A stretch of DNA of 64,000 nucleotides from Candidatus Eiseniibacteriota bacterium (lineage in GTDB: Bacteria; Eisenbacteria; RBG-16-71-46; CAVPCR01). Numbering within the stretch: the first letter of the stretch is position 1; the number at the start of each line of letters is the position of its first letter. The notes under the pieces were generated by a model, which did not search any database, was not told the DNA's origin, and saw only the letters and a list, made by a program, of their open reading frames with translations. The stretch lies in the NCBI GenBank assembly GCA_963823555.1, contig CAWGMA010000002.1, positions 288,001 through 352,000 of the forward strand. Direction: 5' to 3'. Both the position numbers and the translations under genes were made by a program. Below are positions 20,074 to 58,773 of this stretch, piece by piece.

Positions 20074-21222
20074 TTACCGCCGGAAGCGGGACTTGATCTG
20101 GCCCCAGGTGGCGTCCTCGACCGCCTGCGCTCCGCAGGCCACCGGCCGCGCCCCGACCTGGCCACAGCCCCCGGAATTGCCCTCGGCGCACGGGGAGTCG
20201 GCCTGGAGCGTGAAGCAGGTGCCGTCGGTGCAGCAGAACTCGGGATCGAGCGCGAAGTCGGTGGTGTGGTCGCCGCAGGGGCCGTCGTAGCCGCTGACCG
20301 TGTTCTGCCACACGTCGTTGCAGGTGAAGGTGAGACCCGACTCGCAGGTGACGCCGATCTGGTTCATGCCGATGATGTTGCGCGCGATCGTGATCGCGGC
20401 GCCGGCGGTGGTGCGCACCCCGACATCCCCGTTGCCCCAGATGGTGTTGCCCTCGACGATGGCGGTCGAGGAGGTCAGCGTGAGAAAGACGCCGCTCTCC
20501 AGGTTGTCCATGATCAGATTCCCGCGGATATCAACCGAAACTCCCGTGCCGGAGAGGACGAGACCGAATCCACGGTTAGCCCGGATGGTGTTGTCCTCGG
20601 CTACCATCTCTCCAGCCATCGACACCCAGGTTATGGCGTCGCCAGCGGAGCCGCTGATCATGTTGTTGCTGAGGGTGAGTCCCGATTCCTGGGCGAAGAC
20701 GGCATCCCCGGCTGCCGCGCCGATCTCGTTCCCGCTGATGAGCGCGCTCGGGCAGTTGCGGATCCGGATGCCGGCTCCGCACACCGAGTTGAGGACCGTG
20801 AGCTGGCTCGTGTCGGCGTCGATCGAGCGGCTGGGCCCCGGGGGCAGTTCGAATCCATCGACGGTGACCGCGCCATCGCCGGCGGTGGCGATGGCCACCC
20901 GCTCCTCACCGGCGGCGGGCGGCCCGACGTCGATGACCGGCCGGGCCAGGTTGCCGGGATGCGAGAGCAGGTAGACGCCGGGATAGAGCACGGCGCCGGC
21001 CATCGTGTTGCCGCCGGGGAGATCCGAGAGCACGACCTCGGTGTAGGTGCCCGAGCGGACGAGGACGGTGTCCACGCCGGACTGGGCGCCGGCGGCGAGC
21101 GCGGCGGCCGGGCTCGGATGGTCGTCAGGGACGACGAGGCTGGAACCGGCGGCGGGAGTGGCCATGGCGCCCATGGCGAGAACGAGGACGGCGGCGCGAA
21201 GAGCGATCGGAGGATGGTTCAT
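20074..21222 (-). CDS. Secreted right-handed parallel beta-helix protein with TWG C-terminal tail
   Basis: Signal peptide; VPDD...DTVLVRSGTYTE; repeated 'I.GN.I..N...G'; ends VEDATWGQIKSRFRR. Confidence 0.82.
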   Translation of the reverse strand: MNHPPIALRAAVLVLAMGAMATPAAGSSLVVPDDHPSPAAALAAGAQSGVDTVLVRSGTYTEVVLSDLPGGNTMAGAVLYPGVYLLSHPGNLARPVIDVGPPAAGEERVAIATAGDGAVTVDGFELPPGPSRSIDADTSQLTVLNSVCGAGIRIRNCPSALISGNEIGAAAGDAVFAQESGLTLSNNMISGSAGDAITWVSMAGEMVAEDNTIRANRGFGLVLSGTGVSVDIRGNLIMDNLESGVFLTLTSSTAIVEGNTIWGNGDVGVRTTAGAAITIARNIIGMNQIGVTCESGLTFTCNDVWQNTVSGYDGPCGDHTTDFALDPEFCCTDGTCFTLQADSPCAEGNSGGCGQVGARPVACGAQAVEDATWGQIKSRFRR

Positions 21223-21274
21223 GGCGCGGGGATTATCCCACTTCCGATCGGGATGCAAAAGTCGGGAGTGGCCC

Positions 21275-21317
21275 TTGACCGCGGCCGGCGGCCGGTTATA
21301 CTTACCGATCGGTAAGT
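21275..21317 (+). promoter_or_regulatory. Promoter overlapped by a perfect 18-bp palindrome (probable TetR operator)
   Basis: TTGACC (21275-80), 16-bp spacer, TATACT (21297-302); ACTTACCGATCGGTAAGT at 21300-21317. Confidence 0.75.
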
Positions 21318-21372
21318 CCGTCCGCCGCCCACCCCATCCGCGGCGCGATCCCCCGAGTGAGGTGCATCGCGC

Positions 21373-22050
21373 ATGGTCACGCTACGCGCTGCCGCCATGA
21401 GGCAGACCGCGGTGAAGGGGCCGCCTCCCGGGCGGCCCGGCATCCGCTCTGTCGCCGCCGGCTCAGGCTCCACGACACGAGAGCGCGTTCTGCGCGCCGC
21501 GGTCCAGCTCTTCACCGAGCGCGGCTACGCCGCGGCCTCGATGCGCGAGATCGCCGATCGAGCTCGGGTGACGAAGCCGGTCATCTACTACTACTTCAAG
21601 AGCAAGCAGGAGCTCTACGCCTCGCTCCTGCGCCATGTGCTCGAGGAGACCGACCAGCTCTTCGCGACCGAGGTCGCCCGCCGCGGCAGAGCGAAGAGCC
21701 GGTTGCGGGCCCTGATCGCGACCCATGTCCGCATCTGCCGCGAGGAGCCCGATCTCGCTCGCTTCGTCTACGAGGTGTTCTCCTATCCCGGGTCGCTGCC
21801 GCTCGGGTTCGACTACCAGGCGCTCGGACACCGCATTCTCGGCCGGGTCGAGGATCTGATCCGCGAAGGACAGCGCTCGGGCGAGTTCCGGCGTGTGGAT
21901 CCGACCTGCGCCGTCCTGATGCTGCATGGAGCGGTCCACTTCTATGTGGCTGCCCATCTGAGCGGGGTGCCGCCGGAGCTGAACGAGCGCACGGCGTCGT
22001 GCCTGTCCTCGATCCTCTTGCGGGGTGTGGTGGCGGAGGGGTGCCGATGA
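21373..22050 (+). CDS. TetR/AcrR family transcriptional regulator
   Basis: RVLRAAVQLFTERGYAAASMREIADRARVTKPVIYYYFKSKQEL; exact start uncertain. Confidence 0.92.
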   Translation: MVTLRAAAMRQTAVKGPPPGRPGIRSVAAGSGSTTRERVLRAAVQLFTERGYAAASMREIADRARVTKPVIYYYFKSKQELYASLLRHVLEETDQLFATEVARRGRAKSRLRALIATHVRICREEPDLARFVYEVFSYPGSLPLGFDYQALGHRILGRVEDLIREGQRSGEFRRVDPTCAVLMLHGAVHFYVAAHLSGVPPELNERTASCLSSILLRGVVAEGCR

Positions 22051-23618
22051 AGCCCCTGACAGTCACCGTGTGCGCCATCGCGATCGTCGTGGGCTTGGCT
22101 GCGGACTCCACAGCAGAAGCGCCCCGCTCCACTACCGATCCGGCCGTTGTCACCTTCGGCCATTCTCCGCTGCCCGTGATCGATGCCGCCGACACGCTCC
22201 GGCTCGGACTGGGTGGCGCCATCACGATGGTGCTCAACGTCAGCGAGGAGGTCCGGATCGCCGAGTCCGATCTCGCCCGGGCGCGTTCGCTCGTGACCCA
22301 GAGCCGATCGCAGGTGTTGCCGCAGTTGAACGCCGGCCTGAGCTACGCGCGACAGTTCGCGAGCGTCTTCGAGGGCGAATCGGGCGCGGAGTTTCCGCCT
22401 TTCGAGCCCGACACTCTCGCCCCGCTCGAGGACCGCGTGCGTTATCTCGAGGAGAACACCCCCACGGCAGCCCTGTCGGGGCTCAGCGATCTCTTCGGGG
22501 ACCTGCCCTTCGGGCGCGAGCACAGCTGGGTGGCCAGCCTCGGCCTGAGCCAGAAGGTCTACAAGGGGGGTGCCCTCCTCGGTGCCATCCGTGCCGCCGA
22601 GCATGTGCGCGCCGCCGCCGATGAAGCCCTCGCCAGCGCGAAGACCGATCTCGTGCAGGCGGTCATGGAATCCTATCTGGGGGCGCTCCTGGCCGATCGC
22701 CTGGTCTCGATCGCCGAGATCGGCCTCGGCCAGGCCACGCAGCAGTATGAACTCGTGAGCCTGCACCACCAGGTGGGACGGGCGTCCGACTTCGACCTCC
22801 TGCAGGCCGAGGTCCAGCGCGACAACCAGAGACCACTCCTGGTCGAAGCCGAGAACGCGCGTTCCCTCGCCTACCTGAGCTTGCGCCGGCTCATCAACCT
22901 GTCGCCGAACAAGCCGCTGGTGCTCACGGACACCCTTCTTGCCGATAGCACTCCCATCCCCGACATCGCGAGCCTCGATCGGGAACAGCTCGCCCTCGAG
23001 GCCGAGAGCCGCCCGGCCATCCGCACGGTGGAAGAGGCCGTGGCCGCTCGCGAGCAAGGCGTGAACGTGGCTCGCAGCGGCTGGTTGCCGGAGGTCTCCC
23101 TGTTCGCGAACTACAGTCAGCAAGCCTATCCGGGCGATGTCGTCCCCGGCGGGGGGGACTGGGTGGACGACTTCGCGGTCGGCCTCCGGCTCGATCTGGC
23201 GCTCTTCGACGGGTTCCTGACCAGCGGTCGGGTGAGCGAGGCCAAGGCCCAGCTCCAGTCCGAGGCGCAGCGGCTGGCCATCCTCCGCGAGGAGCGGCGG
23301 CTGGCCGTCGAACAGCGGAGCGGCGAGCTCGAGCGAGCCCGTGCCGACCTCATGAGCAGGCAGCAGACCGTGCGCTTCGCCGCCAGGGCGCATGATCTGG
23401 CACGGCTTCGCTACGATGAGGGGGCGGCGAACCTGTTCGACGTCGCGGACGTGCGCGTCACCGAGCTGCTGGCACGCATCAACGAGGCGCGAGCCCGGTA
23501 CGACATGATGGTGGCGCTCGCGCGCCTCGAGAAGCTGACCGGCCGCCCGTTCCTGACCTCGCAGATCGTGCCGGGAGGAGTGGTCGACGTGCCCGTGGAG
23601 CCGGGGGAGGAGAAGTGA
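22047..23618 (+). CDS. TolC-family outer membrane efflux protein
   Basis: Signal peptide; ATGA overlap with tetR; LP.L.A motifs; 'DLLQAEV', 'RYDEGAANLFDV'. Confidence 0.88.
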   Translation: MKPLTVTVCAIAIVVGLAADSTAEAPRSTTDPAVVTFGHSPLPVIDAADTLRLGLGGAITMVLNVSEEVRIAESDLARARSLVTQSRSQVLPQLNAGLSYARQFASVFEGESGAEFPPFEPDTLAPLEDRVRYLEENTPTAALSGLSDLFGDLPFGREHSWVASLGLSQKVYKGGALLGAIRAAEHVRAAADEALASAKTDLVQAVMESYLGALLADRLVSIAEIGLGQATQQYELVSLHHQVGRASDFDLLQAEVQRDNQRPLLVEAENARSLAYLSLRRLINLSPNKPLVLTDTLLADSTPIPDIASLDREQLALEAESRPAIRTVEEAVAAREQGVNVARSGWLPEVSLFANYSQQAYPGDVVPGGGDWVDDFAVGLRLDLALFDGFLTSGRVSEAKAQLQSEAQRLAILREERRLAVEQRSGELERARADLMSRQQTVRFAARAHDLARLRYDEGAANLFDVADVRVTELLARINEARARYDMMVALARLEKLTGRPFLTSQIVPGGVVDVPVEPGEEK

Positions 23619-24802
23619 TGGAGAGGTGTAGCGTGATGACCCATCGGCCCGGGGTGCAGGGTGGATACGCCGGCATGTGGATCGCCGCCGGCTTGCTTCT
23701 GGCCGCGATCGGATGCGGTGGATCCCCGGAGGCCAACCGCGACGCGGATGAGGCCACGCTCATCGTCGCTCCGGATCGCGTGGTCGAGGCCGAGATCAGG
23801 CGACTCGAGGCCGGCGTGCCCTTCACCGGTGAGCTGCGCCCGATCCTGGCGGTCACGATCAAGGCGCAGATCGACGGCGATCTCGATGCGGTGCTGGTGC
23901 GCGAGGGGACACGGGTACGCGTTGGACAGCCGCTCGCGCGCTTCGATCCCGGCGACACGCGTGATCGCCACGCCGCCGCCGAAGCGGACTTCCTGGCGGC
24001 GAAGGCCGGGGCCATCGCCGCCACCAGTGATCTCAAGCGCGTCGAGCGCCTGCTGGAAGCCGGCGCCGCTTCGCCGGCCGAGCTCGAGCTGGCCCGGGCC
24101 AGCGCCGACGCGGCAGAGGCCAGACTGCGGCTCGCCGAGGCGACCCGGAATCGCGCCACCGATGACCTGGCGCGGCTCGATGTGCCGAGCCCGATCGCGG
24201 GAGAGGTGAGCCAGCGTTTCGTCGGTCAGGGAGACCACGTCGCCATCGGCGATCCGTTGATGACCGTGGTCGACACCGAGACCCTCGAGCTCGCGGCGAC
24301 CATTCCCGCCGATGCTCTCTCCCGGGTGCGCGTCGGCACTCCAGTGCGGTTTCAGGTCGATGCGTTCCCGGATCGGGTGTTCTCGGGGGAGGTGGCTCGT
24401 GTCAACCCGGTCACCGAACCGGGCACGCGCCAGGTGCAGATCTATGCCCGTTTGCCGAATCCGGAACGCCTGCTCGTGGGCGGTCTGTTCGCCTCGGGAC
24501 GGGTCGTCGATGCGGTCGCCGAGAGTGCCCTGGCGGTGCCCGTCGCCACGCTCCGCCAGGAGGCGGATACGCGTGTGGTGTATGTCGTTCGCGATGGCAG
24601 GACGGTGCGCGTGCCGGTGACCACCGGTTTCACCGATGAGGGCCTGGACCTGGTGGCCGTGAACGGGGATCTGGCTCCCGGGGACTCGCTCCTCATGGGC
24701 ACGATTCCCGGGCTCCGGTCCGGGATCCCGATCCGTCTCAGCGGCAACAACGGCAAGAACCAGGACGGCGGCACCGCGCCCGGGCACGCGGCAGGACAGT
24801 AG
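23615..24802 (+). CDS. RND periplasmic adaptor (MFP) subunit
   Basis: Lipobox-like AAIGC; G.L.P..V.IKAQIDG; SPIAGEV; PVTEPGTR; G.FASG. Confidence 0.9.
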   Translation: MMERCSVMTHRPGVQGGYAGMWIAAGLLLAAIGCGGSPEANRDADEATLIVAPDRVVEAEIRRLEAGVPFTGELRPILAVTIKAQIDGDLDAVLVREGTRVRVGQPLARFDPGDTRDRHAAAEADFLAAKAGAIAATSDLKRVERLLEAGAASPAELELARASADAAEARLRLAEATRNRATDDLARLDVPSPIAGEVSQRFVGQGDHVAIGDPLMTVVDTETLELAATIPADALSRVRVGTPVRFQVDAFPDRVFSGEVARVNPVTEPGTRQVQIYARLPNPERLLVGGLFASGRVVDAVAESALAVPVATLRQEADTRVVYVVRDGRTVRVPVTTGFTDEGLDLVAVNGDLAPGDSLLMGTIPGLRSGIPIRLSGNNGKNQDGGTAPGHAAGQ

Positions 24803-24805
24803 GAC

Positions 24806-27800
24806 ATGTTTCTCTCCGAACTCTCGATCAAACGCCCTGTCTTCGCCACGATGATGATGGTGGCGCTGGCCACGCTCGGCATCTTCTCCTACCGGCGCCT
24901 CAACATCGATCAATGGCCGGATATCGACTTCCCGGTGATCGTCGTGCAGACCATCTACCCCGGCGCCTCGCCGGAGGCGGTCGAGCGCGAGGTCACCCGC
25001 CGGGTCGAGGAGGTCGTGAACCCGATCGAGGGCGTGCGCGAGCTCACCTCGACGTCCCTCGAGGGGCTGTCGAGCGTGGTCGCCATGTTCGAACTGGATG
25101 TGAACAGCCTCGACGCCCAGCAGGACGTCCGGACCAAGATCGAGTCGATCCGCGCCGAGTTGCCGGCCGACATCGAGGAGCCGCTCGTCCTGCGCTTCGA
25201 TCCCGACGAGATCCCGATCATGTCGCTCGCCCTGCGCTCGGAACGGCAGAGCCGGCGCGAGCTGACGACCCTCGCCGAGGAGACGCTCAAGAAGCGGCTC
25301 GAGGCGGTGACCGGCGTCGGTCAGGTCTCGATCGTCGGCGGCGAGAAGCGCGCGGTCGTGATCGAGCTCGATCCCGACCGCATGGCCGCGAGCCAGGTCA
25401 GCGTGGGCGAGGTGATGGCGGCGGTCGCGGGGGAGAACCGCGAGATCCCGGCCGGGCGCCTGGAGTGGGGACCGGGGGAGCGCCTCGTCCGGCTCGAGGG
25501 GCGGATGCGGACGCCCGAGGAGTTCGCGACCATCGCCGTCGCCCAGCGCGGCGGGCGAGTGGTTCGTCTGGGCGAGGTGGCGACCCCGCGTGACGACGCC
25601 GAGGAGCGGCGCTCGGCGGCCTTCGTCGGCGCCGAGCCCGCGGTGGCGATCGATATCCGGAAGGTGTCGGGGGCCAACACCGTGGAGGTCGCCGATCGGC
25701 TCAAGGAGGAGATGGACGGGCTCCGTGCCGTCGTGCCGGAGGGCACCGAGCTCGGCATCGTGCGCGACAATTCGATCTGGATCCGCGAGTCGGTGGAGGA
25801 CGTGCAGACCACGATCATCATCGGCGCGATTCTGACCGTGCTCGTCGTCTTCCTGTTTCTGAACTCATGGCGTTCGACGGTGATCACCGGACTCACCCTG
25901 CCGGTGTCCTTGATCAGCGCCTTTCTCGCCGTGTATGCCTTCGGCTTCACGCTCAATGTGATGACCCTGATGGGCCTCTCGCTCGCCACCGGGATCCTGA
26001 TCGACGATGCCATCGTGGTTCGGGAGAACATCGTGCGCCACGTGCAGCGCGGAGAGGACCATCACACCGCGGCGCGAAAGGGCACGAGCGAGATCGGTCT
26101 CGCGGTGATGGCGACGACCTTCACGATCGTCGCCGTGTTCGTGCCGGTGGCCTTCATGGGCGGCATCGTCGGCAAGTTCTTCTACGAGTTCGGGATCACC
26201 GTCACCTTCGCCGTGCTCGTGAGTCTCTTCGTCTCCTTCACGCTCGACCCCATGCTGTCCTCGGTGTGGTACGACCCGGTGGCCGCCGGGACCGCCGAGC
26301 ACGGGCGATTCGGGCGGGCCATCGAGCGCTTCAATGACAGTTTCGTCGGGATCGGGAAGCGCTACCGCCGGATCATCGGCTGGGCGCTCTCGCATCGAAT
26401 CGCCACCCTCGGCATCGCCATCGCTTCCCTCATCGGGGCGATGGCGCTCTTCCCGCTCATCGGGGGCGATTTCATGCCCAAGTCGGACGAGGGCGAGCTC
26501 GCGGTCGTGGTCAAGACCCCGGTCGGCTCGAGCCTCGAGTACACGCAGGAGCGCGTGCGCGAGGTGGCGACCCTCATCGAGCGGCATCCGGAGGTCGCCT
26601 ACACCTACTCGACCGTGGGGGGTGGCTGGGAGGGGCAGGTCAACGAGACCGAGATGTACGTGAAGCTGGTGCCCAAACGGAAGCGCGAGCTGAATCAGTT
26701 CCAGTTCGAGGAGCGATTGCGCGAGGAGCTCGGCGCGCTCCCCGGCCTTCGGGTCTCGGTGCTCCAGTCCGGCGGGCTGGGCGGTCCCGAGAAGCCGGTT
26801 CAGGTCTACGTGAGCGGACCACAGCTCGACGAGCTCCGCCGGATCTCGGATGACTTCCTGGCTCTCATGCGCCGCACGCCCGGGTTGATCGAGGTCGAGT
26901 CGGGGCTCGAGGCCGATCGACCGGAACTGCGGGTCGAGCTGCGCCGGGATCTCGCCAGCGATCTGGGGCTCGGCGTGGCGGCGGTGGCGCAGACCCTGCG
27001 CCCAGCGCTCGCCGGGGACGAGATCAGCTCCTGGGAGGACCCGGACGGCGAGGAGCATCCGGTGATCGTACGGTTGCCCCAGTCGGCCCGCACATCCGCC
27101 GACGAGCTGGCGCGGCTCCCGCTCCTGACCGGGACCGTCGATCCCCTGACGGGGGCGCCGCGCACCGTGACGCTCGGCCACATCGCGCGCCTCGAGGAAT
27201 CGGCGGGTCCGCAGAAGATCGAGCGGCGGAACCTCGAGCGGCTGGTCGCGCTCGAGGCCAACTACGACCAGCGCACGCTCACCGAGGTGAGCCGCGACAT
27301 CGAGCGCGGGGCGAAGGCGATCGACATGCCGCCCGGGTACCGCATGGTGCTCGGCGGCGAGACCGAGCACTTCCGGGAGACCGTGGGCTTCATCCTCGAG
27401 AGCCTGGTCCTTGCCGTGGTCTTCATCTATCTCATCCTGGCGAGCCAGTTCGGCGCCTTCCTGCAGCCGCTCGCCATCATGCTGTCCTTGCCGCTGTCGC
27501 TGGTCGGTGTGTTCCTCGGGCTCCTCGCCACCGGCTCGACGTTCAACCTGATGAGCATGATCGGGCTCATCCTGTTGATGGGGCTCGTGACCAAGAACGC
27601 GATCCTGCTCGTCGACTTCGCCAACCAGGCGCGGGCGCGCGGCTCGGATCGGCGGCGCGCGCTGATCGATGCCGGAGAGACGCGGCTCCGGCCGATCGTG
27701 ATGACCACGCTCGCGATGATCTTCGGCATGCTGCCGATCGCGCTCGCGATCGGCGCCGGGGCCGAGTTCCGGGCGCCGATGGCGCGCGCGGTGATCGGCG

Positions 27801-27949
27801 GGCTCATCGCCTCGACGCTGCTCACGCTCGTCGTGGTGCCGGTGGTCTATACCTTCCTCGATGATGCGGGGGGGTGGGTGAAGCGGCGGCTGACTCGGGA
27901 GCGGCGCAGTCACGCCACCGATCTTCCTCCCTCGCTTCCGTTGCGGTAG
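24806..27949 (+). CDS. RND efflux permease (AcrB/HAE1 family)
   Basis: [43 protein letters not shown]; 1047 aa. Confidence 0.95.
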
Positions 27950-30163
27950 CGCCAGGAAGCACGCCATTGGGCGAGGTGGGCCTCGGCCTGCTGGGCGGAG
28001 ATGCGGCGTTCGTTGAAGAAGCAGGCCAGGGCACGCCCGGTCCTGGGATGGATGCCGAGCTTGGTGGTGAGCTGGTGGGGCGCCAGGCCGCCGATGTCGA
28101 TGCGGCCTTCATGCTGTCCGGCGATGTGGTGTCCGGCGCACAGGGTGGTCTTGTTGCTGGGGTCATTGGAGCCGCCCATGGGCGCGGGCACGCATGTGAT
28201 GGGCGTGAAGATTGGCGCGGGACGTACACCCGGGGCAGGAGCAGAGGTAGCGATCGCGGGCGATGATGCGATGCCGGCGGGCGAGAGCGCGGGCAAGTGG
28301 CGTGTCGTGAGTGTGGAAGAAGTGGAGGAGGATGAGCTCGAATGAAGTCCACATGGGACTGAGTGGTTGGCGCAGGAAGTGGCGAGCGGCGTCGAGTGCC
28401 TGGTGAGCCAGAGGCCGGACGTCGGCGGGAAGCCAGAAGCGGATGCGGGCGATGCAGAGCTCGGGCGGGGCGAGGGCGATGTCGTCGGGGATGCCCGTGA
28501 TCCTGGGGAGAGCGCCGGGAGCGGTGGGTGGAAGAGCAACGCCGAGGGGCAGGGGCGGGTCGGTGGCTGAACCGAGGCTGGCGATGCCGAGGGTGGCTGC
28601 AAACGCGGTCGCTTCGGCTCCAGCCATGGATTCAACCTGCCCTTCGACCTGCCGGGCGAGGCCCTGAGACCTGAGTCCGCGGATCCAGGACGCAAGGACG
28701 GTGGGATGGGCCTCGGGGAGGGTGTAGGTGCGAGCGAACTCGACCACGCGCTCGAGCTCGCGATAGGTGATGCCGTCGGCCCAGCGCACCCAGATCGGCT
28801 CGGTGGCCGGATGGAGGATGGGCAGGAGGAGGAGGGCCGCGGTGTAGGAGAGGGCGCCCTCGAGATAGGCCTGCTCGAGGCGGGGGAAGCGGTGGAGGCC
28901 CCTCTGGAAACGGAGCAGGCGTTCGGCGCGGCGCACGCCGAAGCCGAGGCGGCGTTCGCAGTAGTCGGCGAACGAGGAGAAGCCGAGGAGGCGCCATGAT
29001 CCGTCCGCGGTGAGGCGCTCGAGGTGGACCGCGATCGAAAGGCGGAGCTTCTTCTTCAAGTGCGCGAGGCGGGCGAGGGTGGCGGCGATCTGCCAGGGAT
29101 CGGCCTCCTCATCGCATACGCAATCGGCGGGGAGCTGGTGCTCGGGGTGGCGCCAGTCGAGAACCGGTGACCTCGCCGTGGCCGATGCCGGGCCGTCATC
29201 GCTGGGCGCCAGGGGTCGGCTTTCTCCCGGCGTCGCGCTCACCGGCGCCGACTCCGCACCCGCGGCGTGCGGCTCCCGATTCATTGCAGCGATCACGGCA
29301 TCCAGAAAGCGCTCGCGCTGGGATCCCACCGCATCACCCTTGCTTTCCTTCGGGGACTCGGCCGTGGCGCCCTGCGCCGACAGGTACTCGGCGAAGATCA
29401 GCTCCGCACATTGGCCGTGGTGGAGATGGCGGCCGGCGGCGGCGCGGGCCAGCTCGACGGCGGCATGCCACAGGACGGCGACGCGGGCTGGAGCGGCGAT
29501 CGACATCCAGCCCCCGGCCGGGGGCCCAGCGAAATCGCCTCCTGCAGCGAACGCCCCGAGGTCGGCCCCCGCACTGAGATCGAGAACGGTGACCGCCGCG
29601 GCTTCCTCGGCATCTGCGGTCGCCGCCTTGGCCACCACCCCAGCCACCGCTTGCTTCCTCTCGGCGCGCGTCCGGCGTACCAGCCGATGCAGCGTGCGGA
29701 TCGACATCCCTTGCGCGCGCTCGATCCACGCCTGGCGCTCGGCGGCCGGGGTGGTTGCATCCACCACCGTGCCGAGCTCGATGGCGTGGGAGGCGGAGAT
29801 GTGCCCGGCGACGAGCGCCTGGTCGATGTCGGGAGCCGTGCGGAGGACGCGGCCGAGTCGCGCCAGCCAGCGGGCGCGGCCTTCCTTGATGCCGAGCTCC
29901 TCGCGCACGAAGTCGGTGGCGCGCACGAAGCCGAGGGGGCGATAGAGCTCGCGGTCCCAGAGCAAGGCGAGACCACGCGCGAGCTCGCGATCCGCTTCAC
30001 TCTCGGCGCGCGCAAGGCGCCACAGCGCGGCGTCGCGGGCCAGGGCCGCGGGCTGGGCACCGAGGCTGGCCACCCGCGGATCAGGCACCGCCGCTGGATT
30101 CGTGCCCGCTACGGAAGACGGCCTCGCCGTCGCAATGGCAACCGACACCGATCGACTCCCCAT
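27910..30163 (-). CDS. Large HNH endonuclease with duplicated DUF222-like helical domain; single +1 frameshift near 28177
   Basis: RDRYLCSCPGC...LHAHHMRARAHG in ORF 28163-30217 continues as GGSNDPSNKTTLCAGHH...HEG in frame 27910-28695; two copies of 'LGF....(F/Y)....LG....A..L.R...L...P....A...G.(I/L)S'. Start uncertain (30163 or 30217). Confidence 0.75.
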
Positions 30164-30329
30164 CGTGAGCGCGCCGGGCGCACGCCTTCTGTTGCCAGCC
30201 GGAAGCGCGCGCCGCATGGGAGCAAACCGCGCCTCGGCCCATCATGGTTCGGGGTCTGTCGGGGTCCTTGGGGCTCGTCGCCGCCGCAGGGTGGGAGGGG
30301 AGGGCGGACGATGCGAGCCGACTCCCTGG

Positions 30330-30359
30330 AGTCTAGAAGGCCAGTTCGGGGCCCGTCAA
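30330..30359 (-). promoter_or_regulatory. Sigma70-like promoter for the HNH gene
   Basis: Minus strand TTGACG-18 bp-TAGACT. Confidence 0.45.
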
Positions 30360-30412
30360 CACAAAAGTATAGTCCCGTCGAAAATGCCCACAGATACCAC
30401 ATAAGTCTTTAT

Positions 30413-30428
30413 CATATATGCATATATG
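30413..30428. repeat. AT-rich 16-bp palindrome CATATATGCATATATG
   Basis: Tandem copy of the self-complementary 8-mer CATATATG within an AT-rich patch. Confidence 0.85.
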
Positions 30429-30641
30429 TGGCTGTTGCGGGTTCCGCTCACCCGGGGGCGGCATCCCGCCTGCCTCCTCCGACCTCCCGGGGAGCCCCCG
30501 TTCTCCCACCTCGCGACCAGGCGCGAGCGGCCACCGGGATCCCGCCCCGGATCCCTCAGGTACACTGCCGCGGCGATTTGCTAGCATCATATGTCCGTTT
30601 CGCTCGGCCCCCCACCCATCAACACAGGACCCGGAAGGACC

Positions 30642-31163
30642 ATGAACACTCGCCATTGCTCTGTCTTGCTCATCCTGTTCGCCGTCACCACCCTCGGCAT
30701 CGCCCCGGCCCAGGCGGATCCGATTCCCTACCCCGATGAGTGGATCGGCGTCTGGGAGATCACGTCCATTGCTCGAGACTGCGACACGCAGGCTATCCTC
30801 TTTCAGAACACGGTTCTGGACACGATCTGTGCCGGGGAAATCTACGAGCCGGACCCGGAGGATCCGCTGACCTGCTCGGGGACGATCACCCAGAACACGG
30901 TCAGCATCCAGTGCGAGGGTTCCTACGAGGAGGAGCCGGGGTGCACGGCCAATGTGCAGCTCACGATCGATGGCACCCGCAACGGCAATGCATGGAGCTC
31001 GACGACTCGAATCGAGACCACTTTCGTCGGCTCGACGTGTCCCATCTCCGAGTTCTGCATCGTGACAACTCAGAACGCGGCCCGGATCGATCTCGATCCT
31101 GATTGCCCGGCGGCGCCCGTCGAGCCCATCACCTGGGGATCGCTCAAGCACATGTATGACTGA
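30642..31163 (+). CDS. Secreted beta-rich hypothetical protein with TWG C-terminal tail
   Basis: AAGGA RBS; signal peptide ending AQA; WIGVWEI; several Cys; ends VEPITWGSLKHMYD. Confidence 0.78.
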   Translation: MNTRHCSVLLILFAVTTLGIAPAQADPIPYPDEWIGVWEITSIARDCDTQAILFQNTVLDTICAGEIYEPDPEDPLTCSGTITQNTVSIQCEGSYEEEPGCTANVQLTIDGTRNGNAWSSTTRIETTFVGSTCPISEFCIVTTQNAARIDLDPDCPAAPVEPITWGSLKHMYD

Positions 31164-31216
31164 GACGCCGGCTCCCTCGTGAGGAAGGAGCGGTCGCACC
31201 TATTGCGATTCTCGAG

Positions 31217-31245
31217 CTGGGCGGCCTCCCGGGCCGCCCAGTTTC
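31217..31245. terminator. Hairpin terminator between convergent genes
   Basis: CTGGGCGGCC / GGCCGCCCAG followed by TTTC. Confidence 0.6.
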
Positions 31246-31256
31246 ATCCTGGCCCG

Positions 31257-32384
31257 CTACTGCAAGAGCGACAGGAACACCCCCGCCACGACCGCGGATC
31301 CGACCACTCCGGCGACATTGGGTCCCATCGCCGGCATGAGAACATTGACCTCGCCATCGGTGCTGTCGGAGACGAACTTCTGGACCACCCGCGCGGCCAT
31401 CGGCACGGCGGATACGCCGGCGGCGCCGATGCACGGGTTGATCTTCCTCGACGCCGGCAGCGCCAGGTTGAGGAGCTTCGCGAAGAGGACGCCGCCCGCC
31501 GTGCTGAAGGAGAACGCCACCGCTCCGAGCGCGAGGATCATGAGCGTCTGGGTCGTGAGAAATCTCGTGCTCTCCATCGTGGCGCCGACGGTGATGGCCA
31601 GGAAGATGGTGACGATGTCGATGAGCGGACCGCTGGCGGTCTTGCGCAGGCGCTCGGTGACCCCGCTCTCCCGGAGGAGGTTCCCGAACATGAGCATGCC
31701 GACCAGCGGTGCGCTCGAGGGCACGGCGAGAGAGGCCACGGCTCCCGTGACCAGCGGGAACAGGACGACCGCCGTCTTCGACACTCGCATCGCCTGCGGC
31801 ATCGGGATCGACCGCTCGTGCTTCGTGGTCAGGAGACGCATGATCGGCGGCTGGATGATGGGGACGAGCGACATGTAGCTGTAGGCCGCCAGTGCCACCG
31901 GGCCCAGGATGTGCGGGGCCAGCTGGGACGAGAGGAAGATCGTGGTCGGCCCGTCGGCGCCGCCGATGATCCCGATGGCAGCCGCCTCTTGCGGCGTGAA
32001 CCCGAAGAGGTAGGCCGCACCGAGAGCAGCGGCGAAGATTCCAAGCTGCGCGGCCGCACCGAGGAGGAAGGTGAGCGGGCGGGCCAGGAGCGGTCGGAAG
32101 TCCGTGAGCGCGCCGACCCCGAGGAAGATGATCGGCGGCAAGAGCTCGGTCTTGACGCCGGCCTGGTAGATCAACGAGATGATCCCGTGACCGTACGATC
32201 CGAGCTCGGCGAGAGGGAAATTGGCGAGCACGATGCCGAACCCGATCGGGATCAGGAGGAGCGGTTCGTAACCTCTCGTGATCGCCAGGTAGACCAGGGT
32301 TCCCGATATCGCGTACATGACCCAGTTGCCCCAGGTCATGTGCGCGAATCCGGATTGGCTCAGGAGTCGGATGATCTCGTCCAT
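31257..32384 (-). CDS. oadB: Na+-translocating decarboxylase beta subunit
   Basis: YEPLLLIPIGFG, PPIIFLGVGALTDF, IGIIGGADGPT, AAYSYMSLVP, IGAAGVSAVPMAARV, AMGPNVAG. Confidence 0.93.
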   Translation of the reverse strand: MDEIIRLLSQSGFAHMTWGNWVMYAISGTLVYLAITRGYEPLLLIPIGFGIVLANFPLAELGSYGHGIISLIYQAGVKTELLPPIIFLGVGALTDFRPLLARPLTFLLGAAAQLGIFAAALGAAYLFGFTPQEAAAIGIIGGADGPTTIFLSSQLAPHILGPVALAAYSYMSLVPIIQPPIMRLLTTKHERSIPMPQAMRVSKTAVVLFPLVTGAVASLAVPSSAPLVGMLMFGNLLRESGVTERLRKTASGPLIDIVTIFLAITVGATMESTRFLTTQTLMILALGAVAFSFSTAGGVLFAKLLNLALPASRKINPCIGAAGVSAVPMAARVVQKFVSDSTDGEVNVLMPAMGPNVAGVVGSAVVAGVFLSLLQ

Positions 32385-32396
32385 GTGCTTGCCCCG

Positions 32397-34274
32397 TCAT
32401 CCAATCGTGATGAGAGGCCGCGATGAATCGGGTTCATCGCCCACCCGGACATGGACGGCGATCACGGAGCCGTCGCGCGGCGAACGGACCTCGTGCTTCG
32501 CCTTCATCGCCTCGACGGCGGCGAGCACCTGACCCTTCTTCACCGCATCGCCCACCTTCACCAGGATCTCGACCACCTCGACCGATCCGCCGAAGCCCGA
32601 GAAGACGGGCGTGCCCGTGGCGACCGCCGTGCCGGCCCCGGCGGCCGGAGCGGCCGCCGCGACGGCGGCGCCGCCGCCCCCCGCGGCGCCCATGGGCTCG
32701 ACCGTGACGAGGAAGGTCCGGAGGCGCCCGTTCTCATCCACCGTGCAGCGCGAGGTGACCGGTCCCGTCGCGGCGATCGGGGCTGGCGCGACCGCCACCG
32801 GTGCCGCGGCTGGAGCCGGCGCGCCGGCTCCCTTGTCGCCGTTTCGCTTGATGAGCGGAATGTCGATCTTGGCGTTGCCGGTGAGGAAGCGGATCCCTTC
32901 GTTGGCCTCCATGTTCTTTCCCGGCACGATGGCGGAGAGGACGAGGAAGATGTTGCGCTCCGTCACCGGGAGCTTCCGCTCTTCCAGCTCCTTCCTTGCG
33001 ATCTCGATGTTCTTCGGGGCCGCCTCGAGCGGATCGCCCTCGAAGGGCGCGAGCTTGAGTTGCTCGGAAGCCTTGGCCACGACGGCTGGATCGGGCGACA
33101 GCGGCGTCTTTCCGAAGTAGCCGAGCACGGCCCGGCCGTAACCCGAATCGATCTTCTCCCAGCGACCGTACATGACGTTGTTGAAGGCCTGGAGCCAGTA
33201 CTGCTGGCTACCGGGCGTGACGCTGGTCCAGGCTCCACCGGCCTCGACCACGACCGGGAACTCGGCCAGCACGTCACCGTACTTGTTGAGGATGCCGGCC
33301 TTCGCCATCATGTGGACGTTGGGTCCGATCGCGCCGCCCGGCATCGGGAACCCGACCACACGGGCATCCGCCGTGGTCGTGGTCGGGTTGAAGTCGTATT
33401 CCTTGAGCCCCTCGTTCAGCAGATCCTCGATCTCCGGGATCTTGCTCACGTCCAGATCGAGCGAGTAACCCGTCCCCTTCAGGGCGTGCGCCACCGAGCG
33501 GACATCGGGTTGGACGGTCCCGCTGGCCATCGGGCGAACCGACAGATCGATGCCGTCCACCCCACCCTGGATGCCCGCCATGTAGCAGGCCACCGCCATG
33601 CTGGCGGTGTCGTGGGTGTGGAACCAGAGCGGCATCTCGGGCGGCATCAGCTTGCGGAGCCCGACGGCGGTGTCGTAGACGGTCTTGGGGTCGGTGGTCC
33701 CGCTGGCATCCTTGAGGCAGATGCTGTCCATATGGAGGCCGCTCTTCAGGAGCTGGGCGCCGATATCGATATAGAAGGCAGCCGTGTGCACCTTGTCGGA
33801 CTTGAAGGGAAGCCCCATGAGGGCGATCGCCGCCTGGTGGTGCATGCCGGAGTCGACGATCGGCTGCCCGGTGTTGATGAGATTCCGGACATCGTTCATG
33901 TAGTCGAAATTCCGATCCCAGGTGGTCCCGGCCTCATGCATGAGCTTGGCCTGCAGGGTCAGCGCCTCGATCGACTGCGTCGTCAGCGTCACCCCGGACA
34001 CCGAGCGCGTCAGGATCTGGAGATCGACTCCCGGGCCGACGGCGTCGCGGATCTTCTGCATGGTGGCGAAGGGATCCTCGCCCAGATAGAACAATGGAGC
34101 CTGGAACCGCGCTCCGCCTCCGAACTCGAAGTGACGGATGCCCGCTTCCACCGAGGCCTTCATGGCGGGAAGGAAATCAGCCAGACGAACCTTGCCGCCG
34201 AAGGAACTCTGGAGCCCGTCGCGGAACGGGGTGAACATGACGCGTATCTTCTTGGGCTTCGATGTGAAGATCAC
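32397..34274 (-). CDS. oadA: Carboxyltransferase plus biotinyl domain (oxaloacetate decarboxylase alpha / PycB-like)
   Basis: FRDGLQS, GGGARFQ, CLKDASG, HTH, MPGG, VTPGSQ; Ala/Pro linkers; VEAMK biotin site; GTG start overlaps the upstream stop. Confidence 0.85.
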   Translation of the reverse strand: MIFTSKPKKIRVMFTPFRDGLQSSFGGKVRLADFLPAMKASVEAGIRHFEFGGGARFQAPLFYLGEDPFATMQKIRDAVGPGVDLQILTRSVSGVTLTTQSIEALTLQAKLMHEAGTTWDRNFDYMNDVRNLINTGQPIVDSGMHHQAAIALMGLPFKSDKVHTAAFYIDIGAQLLKSGLHMDSICLKDASGTTDPKTVYDTAVGLRKLMPPEMPLWFHTHDTASMAVACYMAGIQGGVDGIDLSVRPMASGTVQPDVRSVAHALKGTGYSLDLDVSKIPEIEDLLNEGLKEYDFNPTTTTADARVVGFPMPGGAIGPNVHMMAKAGILNKYGDVLAEFPVVVEAGGAWTSVTPGSQQYWLQAFNNVMYGRWEKIDSGYGRAVLGYFGKTPLSPDPAVVAKASEQLKLAPFEGDPLEAAPKNIEIARKELEERKLPVTERNIFLVLSAIVPGKNMEANEGIRFLTGNAKIDIPLIKRNGDKGAGAPAPAAAPVAVAPAPIAATGPVTSRCTVDENGRLRTFLVTVEPMGAAGGGGAAVAAAAPAAGAGTAVATGTPVFSGFGGSVEVVEILVKVGDAVKKGQVLAAVEAMKAKHEVRSPRDGSVIAVHVRVGDEPDSSRPLITIG

Positions 34275-34486
34275 TTCACTTCCTCCACATGGGTGACTTT
34301 CGTCCCCGGATAGAGGCTTGAGTAGACGGAGGTCACGGCGGCCACGAGGGCGGCATCCCCCTCTCCTTCCACTGCCGGGAAGGCCATCGTGATCAAGCGG
34401 ATGCTTCCGGCGAGAACCGCCAGCAAGACGAGAACGGAGCCGAAGGCAATGGTCGATATGCTGAAGAGATCCGGTGTGGGCATCAT
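34271..34486 (-). CDS. oadG: Decarboxylase gamma subunit (OadG-like)
   Basis: 71 aa; one TM helix (AFGSVLVLLAVLAG) plus DAALVAAVTS; directly upstream of oadA. Confidence 0.75.
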   Translation of the reverse strand: MMPTPDLFSISTIAFGSVLVLLAVLAGSIRLITMAFPAVEGEGDAALVAAVTSVYSSLYPGTKVTHVEEVK

Positions 34487-34497
34487 GGTCCTGGTCG

Positions 34498-35433
34498 TTA
34501 GTTGGGGAGCAGTTCCAGCCTCCCGGTGGGAATCGGGGATGGAGCTCCATCGAGAAAGAGCTGCAGATCGTCGCCGATCGACGATACGACGCCGTCCCTG
34601 AGCTCCTCGCCCATGGCGCCGCTCCGATCGCGGTGGACGCGCACGTGCCTTCCGAGCACGAGCGACCGTGAACGGTAGAGATCGAGGAATCGAGGAAGGC
34701 TGCCGGCCAGCAGCGACCGATAGTTGGTCCCGAGATGGGCGGCCAGGCTGTGGAACACGGCCGACAGGGAGCACTGCGATGGATCAAGAGAGAACTCCCG
34801 GACCGACCCGACTTGCGGCACGAAGGGAGTCGCGGGCACGACGGGAGTCACCTCGACATTGAGGCCGATGCCCAGCGTGGCGCTGATCACGGTGGCGTCC
34901 TGAATCTGGGCACTGGCCAGAACGCCCCCGACCTTGGCCGGGCCGATCATGACGTCATTGACCCACTTCACGGCTGGCGGCTGATGCAGATTCCCCACAT
35001 CGTCGAGGGATTGCAGGACCGACACCGCGGCGAGAACGGTGAACGCCACACCGGCATGCTCGATCCTGGAACTGGGATGGACGAGAGCGCAGAGATGGAG
35101 ATTGCCCGGGGCGGCGACCCAGGGCCGATCCTTGAAGCCATGGAAGCGTTCGCCGGTGCCGGCGATCGCGAGCAGGTCCGCGGCCGGGGAGGACGAACGG
35201 GCCAGCCGGTTGAGGACATCGAACTGCGAGTCGGATGCGCGGCCGACGGCAACGAGGTGCTCCCAGCCCGATGGCAACAGGACATCGGCGCGCTGAACGC
35301 GGTCGGCCTGCACCAGGGCTTCTACGATCGGTCGAATGGAAGGCTCGAGGGCCCTGGTCTTGATCGGTTCCCACCTCAGATCGTCCTGAATCAAGCGGTG
35401 GGCGAACCGGATGTCGTCGGTGTAGAGAACCAC
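34498..35433 (-). CDS. Biotin--protein ligase (BirA/BPL-like)
   Basis: FHGFKDRPW..PGNLHL, VKWVNDV, KVGGVL, GIGLNV; first gene of the oad operon. Confidence 0.8.
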   Translation of the reverse strand: MVLYTDDIRFAHRLIQDDLRWEPIKTRALEPSIRPIVEALVQADRVQRADVLLPSGWEHLVAVGRASDSQFDVLNRLARSSSPAADLLAIAGTGERFHGFKDRPWVAAPGNLHLCALVHPSSRIEHAGVAFTVLAAVSVLQSLDDVGNLHQPPAVKWVNDVMIGPAKVGGVLASAQIQDATVISATLGIGLNVEVTPVVPATPFVPQVGSVREFSLDPSQCSLSAVFHSLAAHLGTNYRSLLAGSLPRFLDLYRSRSLVLGRHVRVHRDRSGAMGEELRDGVVSSIGDDLQLFLDGAPSPIPTGRLELLPN

Positions 35434-35570
35434 CCGTCGTCGTCCTTGGGGATCGCCAATCTGAGCCTACACCCGGGCGATAGTGTAGCACGGTCCAGGC
35501 GGTCGCGGTCCGCGAAGCCCCGCCCGGGCCGGTCGAGCGGGGCATACGGGGCCGGAGGGGGACCGCGGGC

Positions 35571-35604
35571 AAAGCAAAGCGGGCGGCCTCGCAGCCGCCC
35601 GCTT
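35571..35604 (-). terminator. Intrinsic terminator of the 35629-36378 gene
   Basis: AAGCGGGCGGC / GCCGCCCGCTT stem followed by TGCTTT on the minus strand. Confidence 0.7.
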
Positions 35605-35628
35605 GAGAGGACCAGGTTTCGGCCCGGT

Positions 35629-36378
35629 CTACTTGTAGGTGCTCTTGATGGCGCCCCAGGTCGTGTTCTCGACAGGGACCGCGCCGCAGAGGTTCTGAGC
35701 GCAGGGCGAATCCCCATCGACGTTGTAGATGCCCTGCGGGTTCTGGAGGAAGCAACCGCCGGCACCCTCGGTGCCCGCGAGGCAGATCATCCCCCAGCCG
35801 CCGTCGCAGTCCACGCAGCGGGCCACACCGGCGGGATCGAAGTCGGCCGTGCCGTCGGGGCCGGTGTCGGGGCCGAGGCCCGGCACACCATAGTAGGTGA
35901 AGCAGTCGCCCTGGCTCGGCCGGCCCATGCCGACGCCGTCCACGATGGTGCCCGGGAAGGGTCCATCTTCCATGCAGTCATCGTTGGCATCGATGTCGTC
36001 CCCGACGTTGCCGGTGAAGTCGGCGACGAGCAGGATGGTGACACCACCGTTCTCGATGTTGAGCGTCTCCACCTGGTCGGCGCAAATGACCCGCGCCTGC
36101 CCGACCGTGTAGAAACCGCTGGCGCCCACCATGCCCGTGAGCTGGATCGCCTTGTCGATGGTGCCCGTGGCGCTGCCGAAGTCACCTTCGATCTCGATGA
36201 TCCAGAAGCGGCTGAGGTCCGTGCCCGGATCGGCGCAGATCTCCACGAACTCGTAGTCGTCCGTGCTCGTGTCGTTGCGGGAAACTTCGTTCAAGTGAGG
36301 CGCGACCTGCGCCACTGCGAGCGAAGCAAGACCGAGCGAACAGATGGCAGCAAGGAGAAGCGTTATCGAGGTCTTCAT
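35629..36378 (-). CDS. Secreted lamin-tail-like domain protein with TWG C-terminal tail
   Basis: Signal peptide; LNEV....DDYEFVEI; IEN...TILLV; IVDGV; ends VENTTWGAIKSTYK; RBS GGAGG. Confidence 0.78.
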   Translation of the reverse strand: MKTSITLLLAAICSLGLASLAVAQVAPHLNEVSRNDTSTDDYEFVEICADPGTDLSRFWIIEIEGDFGSATGTIDKAIQLTGMVGASGFYTVGQARVICADQVETLNIENGGVTILLVADFTGNVGDDIDANDDCMEDGPFPGTIVDGVGMGRPSQGDCFTYYGVPGLGPDTGPDGTADFDPAGVARCVDCDGGWGMICLAGTEGAGGCFLQNPQGIYNVDGDSPCAQNLCGAVPVENTTWGAIKSTYK

Positions 36379-39220: not shown

Positions 39221-39529
39221 GAATGCACCTCCTGAATCAGCCATCCCCGATCTCGAGGACGGAGCCATTCACCTGCGATGCGGTGTGATCGCATGCGCCC
39301 ATCGACTGGTCCGGAGCGCAGGTACCGGCGTTCGGCGCGGCGTGGTTCTCCGGTGGCGGTCGCGGCACAGGACAGGACGAGCGCCGTGAGCACCGGATGG
39401 ATCGCTTTGCCCTCCGGTCGGCCGGAAACTCCGCGTCCCTGTAGGGTGAGTCGCTCCCCTGGCCCGAAAAGTCACAGTGAAATGATGATGAATCGGAGCT
39501 GTCCACGTGGATCAACCCTGCTTGGGACC

Positions 39530-57858: not shown

Positions 57859-58773
57859 ATGAGAATCCTCTTCACCCTTGTCCTCATGCTCGGAACGGCC
57901 GGGCTGGCGCATGGGGCGCCGACCGTGTACACGGACGAGAGCGCCTTTCTCGCTGATCTCTCCCTGCTCGGGTATCAGATCCTCACGGAGAGCTTCGAGG
58001 ACGATGCTGCCTGGGGCTCGGTGCGGACCACGATCGGCGGGGGTACGCACACGGCGCCGAGCATCACCCATCTCGGCGTCACCTGGATGGCCAACAACCC
58101 GAACGGCGGGGTGACGACCGGAAACGGCCCCGCCCGTACCGGAGAATGGGGTTTCTTCTGCCTGCCCCACGGCGATTACCCCAACGGGGTTCGCGACGGC
58201 TTCGTCGCGACGTCGGCTCAGCCCATCTTCGGCGTCGGCGGGTGGTTCGTGACCAACACTCCATTCGCCAAGATCGTCATCATCCTCGATGGCGGCCGCA
58301 TCGCCGACTTCGGGGACCGGCTGCTCGGCAGCCAGCATGACTTCTATGGTGTCATCGACACGGATGGATTCTCGAGCTTCGAGGTGAACGAAACCGAGGG
58401 CACGCTGGAAGATCAGAAGTTCATCTTTGCCGATGACTTCTCGTTCACGCCGGCGGAGCTGATCGCGGTCGCGGACCAGCCCGCGGCGGTCCCTCATTTC
58501 GGGTTCCTCCCCGGTGTTCCGAACCCATTCAGGTCGACGACGCAGCTTCGCTACGAGCTATCCCGGCCGTCTCGGGTCACTCTCCAGATTCGCGATGTGT
58601 CGGGCCGGCTGGTGCGAGAGCTCTGCCGTGACGCCGACCAGCTTGCCGGGCTGCACGTCGCAGCATGGGATGGCAGGGATGCCCGCGGAGGCCTTGTTCC
58701 CAGCGGGATCTACTTCTCCAGCCTGGAAGGGGACGGCAAGGTCCAGACAGGACGAATCGTCCTGGTTCGTTGA
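57859..58773 (+). CDS. Secreted beta-sandwich protein with FlgD-Ig CTD
   Basis: GGAGGAGG RBS; signal peptide; VPNPF..DVSGRLVR..WDGRD..PSGIYF. Confidence 0.82.
   Translation: MRILFTLVLMLGTAGLAHGAPTVYTDESAFLADLSLLGYQILTESFEDDAAWGSVRTTIGGGTHTAPSITHLGVTWMANNPNGGVTTGNGPARTGEWGFFCLPHGDYPNGVRDGFVATSAQPIFGVGGWFVTNTPFAKIVIILDGGRIADFGDRLLGSQHDFYGVIDTDGFSSFEVNETEGTLEDQKFIFADDFSFTPAELIAVADQPAAVPHFGFLPGVPNPFRSTTQLRYELSRPSRVTLQIRDVSGRLVRELCRDADQLAGLHVAAWDGRDARGGLVPSGIYFSSLEGDGKVQTGRIVLVR

Follow-up and report, generated by a model that had tools for sequence, protein, structure and literature searches.

Short C-terminal motifs that recur on many unrelated exported proteins, and that are expanded in some lineages, are known from the tripartite signals LPXTG/sortase, PEP-CTERM/exosortase and GlyGly-CTERM/rhombosortase, which carry a transmembrane helix and a basic cluster after the motif. 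The known signals of the secretion system of type IX (T9SS), which has been studied almost only in Bacteroidia, are folded domains. Here we describe a 16-residue C-terminal peptide, the TWG tag, that an earlier note had seen at the ends of three secreted proteins in a 64,000-nucleotide stretch of a Candidatus Eiseniibacteriota genome (hereafter the window; assembly GCA_963823555.1, contig CAWGMA010000002.1, positions 288,001 to 352,000). Like the tripartite signals, the tag is short, C-terminal and present on many unrelated exported proteins, but it lacks both their basic cluster and their transmembrane helix, no such segment being found past residue 50 in any of 90 tagged proteins, just as the earlier note had read from the three tails. 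We propose, at a probability of roughly 55%, that the TWG peptide is a short docking signal that is read by machinery of the SprA/PorV/PorU type and replaces the immunoglobulin-like (Ig) C-terminal domain (CTD) on small cargos.

The closest described counterpart is the type A CTD of the T9SS (TIGR04183 or PF18962, with PF13860 of the FlgD_ig type in this genome). The tag resembles it in its position after a Sec-type signal peptide and a cargo, in the small-V/I-acidic junction that precedes it, in its interchange with CTDs on paralogs, and in the presence of SprA, PorV and PorU in the same genomes. It differs in that the CTD is an Ig-like β-sandwich of 70–80 residues, or a sheet of at least three strands and about 45 aa, and in that the tag has none of motifs B, D (GxY) and E as these are described in PMC11969387, its position counts and alignment giving V-E-x-x-T-W-G-x-I-K-x-x-Y/F only; no tagged protein matched Por_Secre_tail or FlgD_ig. 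The tag may also be internal or repeated, is limited here to small cargos, and belongs to a genome without matches to GldL, GldM or GldN. In position and exchange the tag works like a T9SS CTD, judged by sequence, but without an Ig fold and the three motifs it falls outside the CTD class. The short CTDs of Prevotella intermedia show that a T9SS signal can be reduced in length: at 43–55 aa they are still cut and glycosylated. They retain a three-stranded sheet together with motifs B, D and E (PMC11969387), whereas the tag has neither and is about one third as long. Type B CTDs use PorP/SprF shuttles, and orphan cargos share one orphan shuttle, according to PMC12618676. This is a precedent for a second signal class with a separate barrel, and the present genome has several PorV paralogs, one of them an orphan PorV2-like barrel; type B CTDs are, however, folded domains, and the PorV2-like gene here does not track the tag cleanly.

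Across the window's genome (4.62 Mb, 67% GC, 92.5% complete), the pattern [ST]WG.[ILVM]K matches 109 times in 73,655 six-frame open reading frames (ORFs) of at least 30 aa, and 104 of the 109 matches lie at most 11 residues from the stop. With a degenerate DNA pattern there are 106 matches, while its reversed control has 2, and the motif count is far above chance. About 105 likely exported proteins, in a genome of roughly 3,500 genes, end in the tag, the consensus of which is [A/P]-V-E-P-x-T-W-G-x-I-K-x-x-Y/F-R. The cargo counts given here rest on the 90 of roughly 107 tagged ORFs that a simple gene caller recovered among 3,482 genes. The tag is modular, with 60 unrelated body clusters among these 90, and a signal-peptide-like segment is found in 78 of the 90 compared to 1030 of 3156 other genes, as scored by a hydrophobic-segment heuristic rather than by SignalP. 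Tagged bodies are small (median 213 aa, maximum 478), while 129 of 236 CTD-bearing bodies exceed 500 aa. Synonymous codons vary within the tag, all four Gly codons being in use, and no conserved DNA was found in the 60 bases 3′ of the stop codon of tagged genes, so selection acts on the peptide. Tagged genes are also enriched beside CTD genes (29 of 90, versus 348 of 3156 other genes).

A profile search with the tails extended these observations to at least 1311 database clusters at 50% identity; in 149 of the best 150, the last motif lies at most 11 aa from the end. Most of 108 among those 150 best representatives had no Pfam family, and the commonest family was the β-helix (17). The prospects that the tail would occur on few other proteins, or mark an ordinary domain end, are not borne out by 60 unrelated bodies in one genome and this number of clusters, and the reading of the tail as an export or anchoring tag gains support from its C-terminal position, its many unrelated cargos, their signal-peptide-like starts and the lack of a transmembrane helix. 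No entry of Pfam or NCBIfam names or covers the tail, and 33 tails compared with Pfam at E-values up to 1 gave five scattered single-member matches and no dockerin, SLH or cell-wall-binding repeat. A literature search, with subscription journals and supplements outside its coverage, found no description or name for the motif; the best 25 of 372 text matches were unrelated ‘TTWG’ strings only.

In the window itself, the three ORFs and their tails are present where they had been placed (Table 1), and their bodies are non-homologous, with a best pairwise BLASTP E-value of 0.33 or worse once the tails are taken off. All three begin with a signal-peptide-like N-terminus, judged by eye from the sequence rather than with SignalP. 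Protein 1 is a right-handed β-helix in Pfam; proteins 2 and 3 have no match in Pfam or NCBIfam. The tag is kept in 10 of 10 database homologs of protein 2, and the tag or a WGx[T/A]K variant in 44 of 46 homologs of protein 3, with one of the 44 truncated at WG. The Cys that the earlier note had seen a few residues before each tail does not belong to the tag: a Cys stands 15 to 6 residues ahead of the T in only 59 of 107 tagged ORFs, and is therefore part of cargo domain ends rather than of the tag. Next to protein 3 lies a gene for a CTD-bearing protein. As far as the junction, the β-helix end of this protein shows weak similarity to the corresponding end of protein 1 (28% over 114 aa, E = 1e-5), which may be read as a local hint of an exchange between tag and CTD.

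Counts across the genome bear on this exchange directly. The genome encodes 236 proteins with a CTD of the FlgD-Ig/T9SS type, and tag and CTD never occur on one protein among the 90 called tagged genes and these 236; for 21 of the 90 tagged proteins a CTD-bearing paralog exists. In the closest paralog pairs (61–78% identity) homology stops at the junction, as in ...AVWACGG-PVAVEPATWG versus ...AAWACAGG-TTGVAE...PNPF and in ...PDCG-ATAVEPSTWG versus ...PSCG-VVAVEDE...PNPF, and there the tag's V-E lines up with V/I-E/D/S/A in the linker of the CTD. In 69 of 90 tags the motif [GASPT][VI][ED] stands at positions -5 to -3; it is found in 52 of 150 CTD linkers, against 20 of 150 control windows upstream (mean 24.7 and maximum 40 in 500 shuffles). 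In Prevotella, PorU prefers to cut at PT/GI, with a small residue at +1 and Ile at +2 (PMC11969387), and by sequence the tag/CTD junction fits this preference. In metagenomes, the peptide is found in frame directly ahead of the CTD's NYPNPFN strand at 103 of 120 loci, 93 of them distinct (taxon not given). A narrow peptide-then-CTD pattern had no match in five whole genomes, two of which are Poribacteria, and the tandem form is established in metagenome contigs only.

The description of the tag as lineage-specific proves too narrow, since it occurs in many FCB-type lineages and in Poribacteria, in some as a single gene. Most families among 151 genomes of the window's own phylum have tens of matches, with 1–8 in family f7 and genome G092. 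A GTDB-wide pattern scan returned at least 120 loci, of which 111 of those listed have an upstream open frame of at least 45 aa, with lineages known for the first 80. Mixed cargos in 44 clusters account for 53 of the 111, and their lineages include, among the matches listed, Eisenbacteria, Krumholzibacteriia, Latescibacterota, Handelsmanbacteria, Aegiribacteria, Zixiibacteriota and Poribacteria. The remaining 58 are one family of 130–140 aa that consists of a signal peptide, an Fn3-like sandwich and the tail TWG[S/M/A/G]IKx[M/L/I]F[R/K/Q] (L272-L287, L314-L319), with sources, again among the matches listed, in Ignavibacteria, Kapabacteria, Rhodothermaceae, Calditrichia, KSB1 and Marinimicrobia. 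A second small family (L154, L163, L202, L223, L244) ends in ...[LV]xLx-TWG[KR]IKALF[RK], and two of its loci are titled Zixiibacteriota or Ignavibacteria.

The Fn3+TWG protein has one full-length match in each of 16 genomes picked for carrying it, and a strict pattern for it matches 38 of 101 genomes of one phylum, always in a single copy and never in two. Its tail is nearly invariant, with no change at T, W, G, I, K and F, and its body is not; mean column identity is 37%. At least 1069 database homologs exist, and the named ones among 120 listed are ‘hypothetical’ apart from five labelled FlgH; the family is unnamed in NCBIfam, and its ESM Atlas clusters are unnamed and without a common Pfam family. 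No gene neighbour is common to more than 3 of the 16 loci, and none is T9SS-like at six Bacteroidia loci. AlphaFold2 (AF2) predicts an Fn3 fold with a low-confidence terminal helix at residues 118–128, and the same Fn3 stands ahead of CTDs in other proteins, after a PVEL junction. The tail was found in 8 of 121 Bacteroidia, and all six fetched proteins belong to this family.

The earlier note had left the machinery behind the tag as unknown. It can now be narrowed to a likely T9SS-type SprA/PorV/PorU system, while the reader itself was not found. The window's genome encodes SprA, at least six barrels that are PorV-family paralogs, and a PorU that scores over the NCBIfam cut-off and lies directly ahead of PorV. 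The PorU model matches 36 of 36 tag-bearing genomes tested, 31 of them over the cut-off, and SprA is present in 53 of 56 genomes of the same phylum and in 23 of 26 others. Since the tag-bearing genomes tested are kin and not a random draw, this co-occurrence is to be read as consistency rather than as a statistical test.

On the observed side, then, the docking-signal proposal has a C-terminal position, many unrelated cargos, exclusion of and in-register exchange with CTDs, a common junction motif, and co-occurrence with PorU and SprA; binding, passage through SprA and PorU cleavage at the junction would be its mechanistic side. After export by Sec, the T-W-G-x-I-K core, probably as a short helix, would bind a conserved periplasmic or outer-membrane part of the T9SS. 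Small single-domain cargos (bodies under about 480 aa) would then be routed through SprA by the tag, and large cargos by a full CTD. At the small-V/I-E/D junction, PorU may cleave a part of the cargos and attach these to a glycan at the surface. Lipoproteins with tandem or internal copies would keep them and gain avidity, and the single-copy Fn3+TWG protein could be a long-standing dedicated ligand and the source of a tag that in a few phyla reached tens of cargos. In Flavobacterium johnsoniae, cargo binds a carrier barrel within SprA and its release needs energy (PMC10994853), and different classes of signal have shuttles of their own, orphans among them (PMC12618676); by analogy with these, a shuttle that reads the TWG peptide is plausible.

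Several observations weigh against this proposal. No reader was found among the candidates examined, and the tag has neither the Ig fold nor the three motifs (B, D and E) that known CTDs use to bind PorV (PMC11969387, PMC10994853). SprA and PorU are common to many T9SS owners without the tag, so their co-occurrence with it is evidence of the necessary type only, and of the 121 Bacteroidia in the sample about 110 do not have the pattern. In F. johnsoniae it is the motor that powers release (PMC10994853), and GldL, GldM and GldN had no match in any of five genomes, the window's included, in a search that did not extend to GldK; the GldN model matched three Bacteroidia controls. AF2 models of proteins with both peptide and CTD leave the peptide unstructured or of low confidence (pLDDT below 50) and not packed on the CTD in cis. 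True PorV2 is present in three of three tag-less Bacteroidia and weak or missing in two of two tag-bearing Kapabacteria. In four of four two-domain lipoproteins examined, an internal TWG motif lies between duplicated domains that are 42–59% identical, and internal and tandem copies of this kind would fit binding with avidity better than a signal that is cut and discarded, which goes against the proposal insofar as the tag is a cleaved signal.

The search for the reader covered several candidates. The best of them is a PorV2-like barrel, a single-copy orphan whose members group as one clade across the tag-bearing phyla, yet it failed as a marker of the tag. A predicted complex of this barrel, PorV and one window tail scored 0.00 with a mark of 0.32, which counts neither for nor against. 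A Kapabacteria-type variant of the tail, TWGMIKE[M/L]F[R/K], was seen at L171, L177, L190, L207, L215, L224, L237 and L267; together with the lack of a clear PorV2-like gene in two such genomes tested, it offers a possible lead on co-variation. GWxTD proteins were rejected as a marker, being absent from three tag-rich genomes and present in most tag-less Bacteroidia. GldN is found in none of 26 tag-bearing genomes; a rule that the tag occurs with motor-less T9SS only was dropped, as GldN matches occur in five of five tag-bearing Bacteroidia tested, two of them over the cut-off. Family f7 was likewise dropped as a tag-less contrast for a subtractive search for the reader: its genome G055 (2.80 of 3.12 Mb read) holds three real tags and 72 CTD ORFs, so the family is not a negative. 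The intersection of the window's genome with G055 gave 1087 reciprocal matches, 110 of them exported-looking, and none stood out among about 75 that were scanned with Pfam.

Internal and repeated copies come from a lipoprotein family whose members carry one, an internal or up to four tandem TWG motifs (2x, 4x), with one paralog carrying none. A member that was scanned had no Pfam match, and in most members acidic residues follow the lipid Cys. The earlier note took an internal motif as a sign against a sorting tag; such motifs are found in this one small family, where they alter the likely mechanism and leave the tag itself standing. They bear most on the first rival explanation, a tentative one to which we give perhaps half the weight of the docking-signal proposal: a docking peptide, independent of the T9SS, that would work as a minimal counterpart of dockerin or SLH modules and tie its cargo, without a covalent bond, to a receptor or polymer of the envelope (an outer-membrane protein, the S-layer, a glycan or peptidoglycan), with CTD exchange resulting from shuffling at a recombination-prone linker. 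Tandem and internal copies, together with an untagged paralog in the same family, are what such a peptide could produce, as is an Fn3+TWG tail far better conserved than its body, and a peptide plus a CTD in one protein implies a job beyond export. However, an independent anchor would be expected on many proteins that also have a CTD, and none of the genome's 236 CTD proteins has both; a PorU-like junction is kept ahead of the tag, the PorU model has its matches in all tag-bearing genomes tested, and no receptor candidate appeared among about 75 annotated orthologs of the 110 exported-looking proteins shared with G055.

An unlikely second alternative is that the tag is a site for the sortase only, in which TWG would be recognised by a C25 sortase, either PorU or a second one, with cleavage of the junction and attachment of the cargo to follow, and passage occurs by a CTD in cis (the Poribacteria type) or by a carrier in trans. 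The placement of the peptide between junction and first CTD strand in the 93 distinct metagenome proteins agrees with this, as do 21 C25 matches in the genome and the frequent adjacency of tagged and CTD genes, but the genome's CTD proteins manage without the peptide, internal and tandem copies would split the lipoproteins, no carrier is evident, and AF2 gives no packing of peptide on CTD. Somewhat less likely again is an amphipathic helix that binds membrane or lipopolysaccharide directly, without a protein reader. The absence of a transmembrane segment, a mean net tail charge of +1.6, the spacing of W, I and Y/F as on one helix face, and the AF2 helix of the single-copy protein would suit it. 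The amphipathic helix that the earlier note had entertained fares weakly, however: it has that low-confidence AF2 helix in its favour, and against it a helical moment in the genome's tails that barely exceeds shuffles (0.35 versus 0.33 and 0.32 versus 0.26 on two scales). Moreover, an invariant T-W-G-x-I-K over many phyla exceeds what lipid binding needs, and a lipid helix leaves the junction and the CTD exclusion unexplained. Finally, a DNA repeat, domain end or functionless relic, for which tandem arrays speak (18 of 90 tagged genes adjoin another), is very improbable and already largely refuted by the synonymous codon variation without conserved DNA past the stop, the unrelated bodies, and the C-terminal position of the motif across database clusters.

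Other features were seen near the tag genes and the secretion genes (Table 1). In the window, an ORF of 684 aa has no Pfam match, ends in CxCxxC...H-x-H-H and is overlapped by a short ORF in another frame; it resembles a mobile or repeat element of HNH type and may be frameshifted. Between the tagged genes sit two presumably ordinary operons, a putative sodium-pumping decarboxylase set and a putative efflux set of the TetR-TolC-MFP-RND kind, which have no connection with the tag. Elsewhere, the PorU-PorV operon goes on to encode two unnamed proteins, one that is NHL-like, a putative barrel of 1106 aa and a POTRA/BamA-like protein, as read from sequence, and these extras are candidate parts of a motor-less T9SS. 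Six large genes for C25 (gingipain-like) peptidases with CTDs form a tandem array. A BamG-like barrel beside a lipoprotein, the G055 ortholog of which matches NF053685 under the cut-off, suggests that a BAM complex of Bacteroidota type may occur outside Bacteroidota.

Table 1. Coordinates of the tagged genes, CTD-bearing genes and other features; plain numbers are window positions
Feature	Coordinates	Strand	Family or profile
Protein 1, β-helix protein, 382 aa, signal-peptide-like start and TWG tag	20074..21222	-	PF13229
TWG tag 1, AVEDATWGQIKSRFRR + stop	20074..20124	-	
Protein 2, 173 aa, without known family, signal-peptide-like start and TWG tag	30642..31163	+	
TWG tag 2, PVEPITWGSLKHMYD + stop	31116..31163	+	
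Protein 3, 249 aa, without known family, signal-peptide-like start and TWG tag	35629..36378	-	
TWG tag 3, PVENTTWGAIKSTYK + stop	35629..35676	-	
Neighbour protein ending in T9SS-type Ig CTD	36572..39268	-	FlgD_ig PF13860; TIGR04183 just below cut-off
CTD-bearing protein, alternative signal class	53695..55815	-	FlgD_ig
CTD-bearing protein	56076..57593	-	local CTD profile
CTD-bearing protein	57859..58773	+	local CTD profile
Efflux set (presumed)	21373..27949	+	
684-aa ORF	27910..30217	-	
Decarboxylase set (presumed)	31257..34483	-	
Lipoprotein family (P0179, P0222, P0258, P0316)	G000:C1:1650359-1653470; G000:C2:173417-174076	-; -	
PorU-PorV operon, continuation	G000:C1:701094-715022	+	
C25 peptidase array	G000:C1:490000-516200	+	
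BamG-like barrel and lipoprotein	G000:C1:1479659-1482161; L037:14930-16258	-; 	

What is new here are the counted paralog swaps, the FCB-wide single-copy Fn3+TWG protein, the lipoproteins with tandem and internal copies, and the reader candidates that failed. A wider and more doubtful extension of the docking-signal proposal, which we regard as possible but would not favour, is that TWG is the ancestral linear signal of an FCB-wide SprA/PorV/PorU system. The Fn3+TWG protein would then be an unrecognised core part of the machine, which lineages from Ignavibacteria to Marinimicrobia retained in one copy and most Bacteroidia lost, and Eisenbacteria-type lineages, Latescibacterota, Fermentibacteria and Poribacteria would have made its peptide into a third class of signal, for export and anchoring of tens to more than 100 small proteins without a folded CTD and mostly without the Gld motor. 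The single-copy gene makes the question testable, as it occurs in lineages with cultured members (Ignavibacterium, Melioribacter, Rhodothermaceae) and in some Bacteroidia with GldN. If a peptide of 16 residues can replace a CTD, the definition of a T9SS signal would change, a few per cent of the proteome would be reassigned in several uncultured phyla, and a very small display tag would be on offer.

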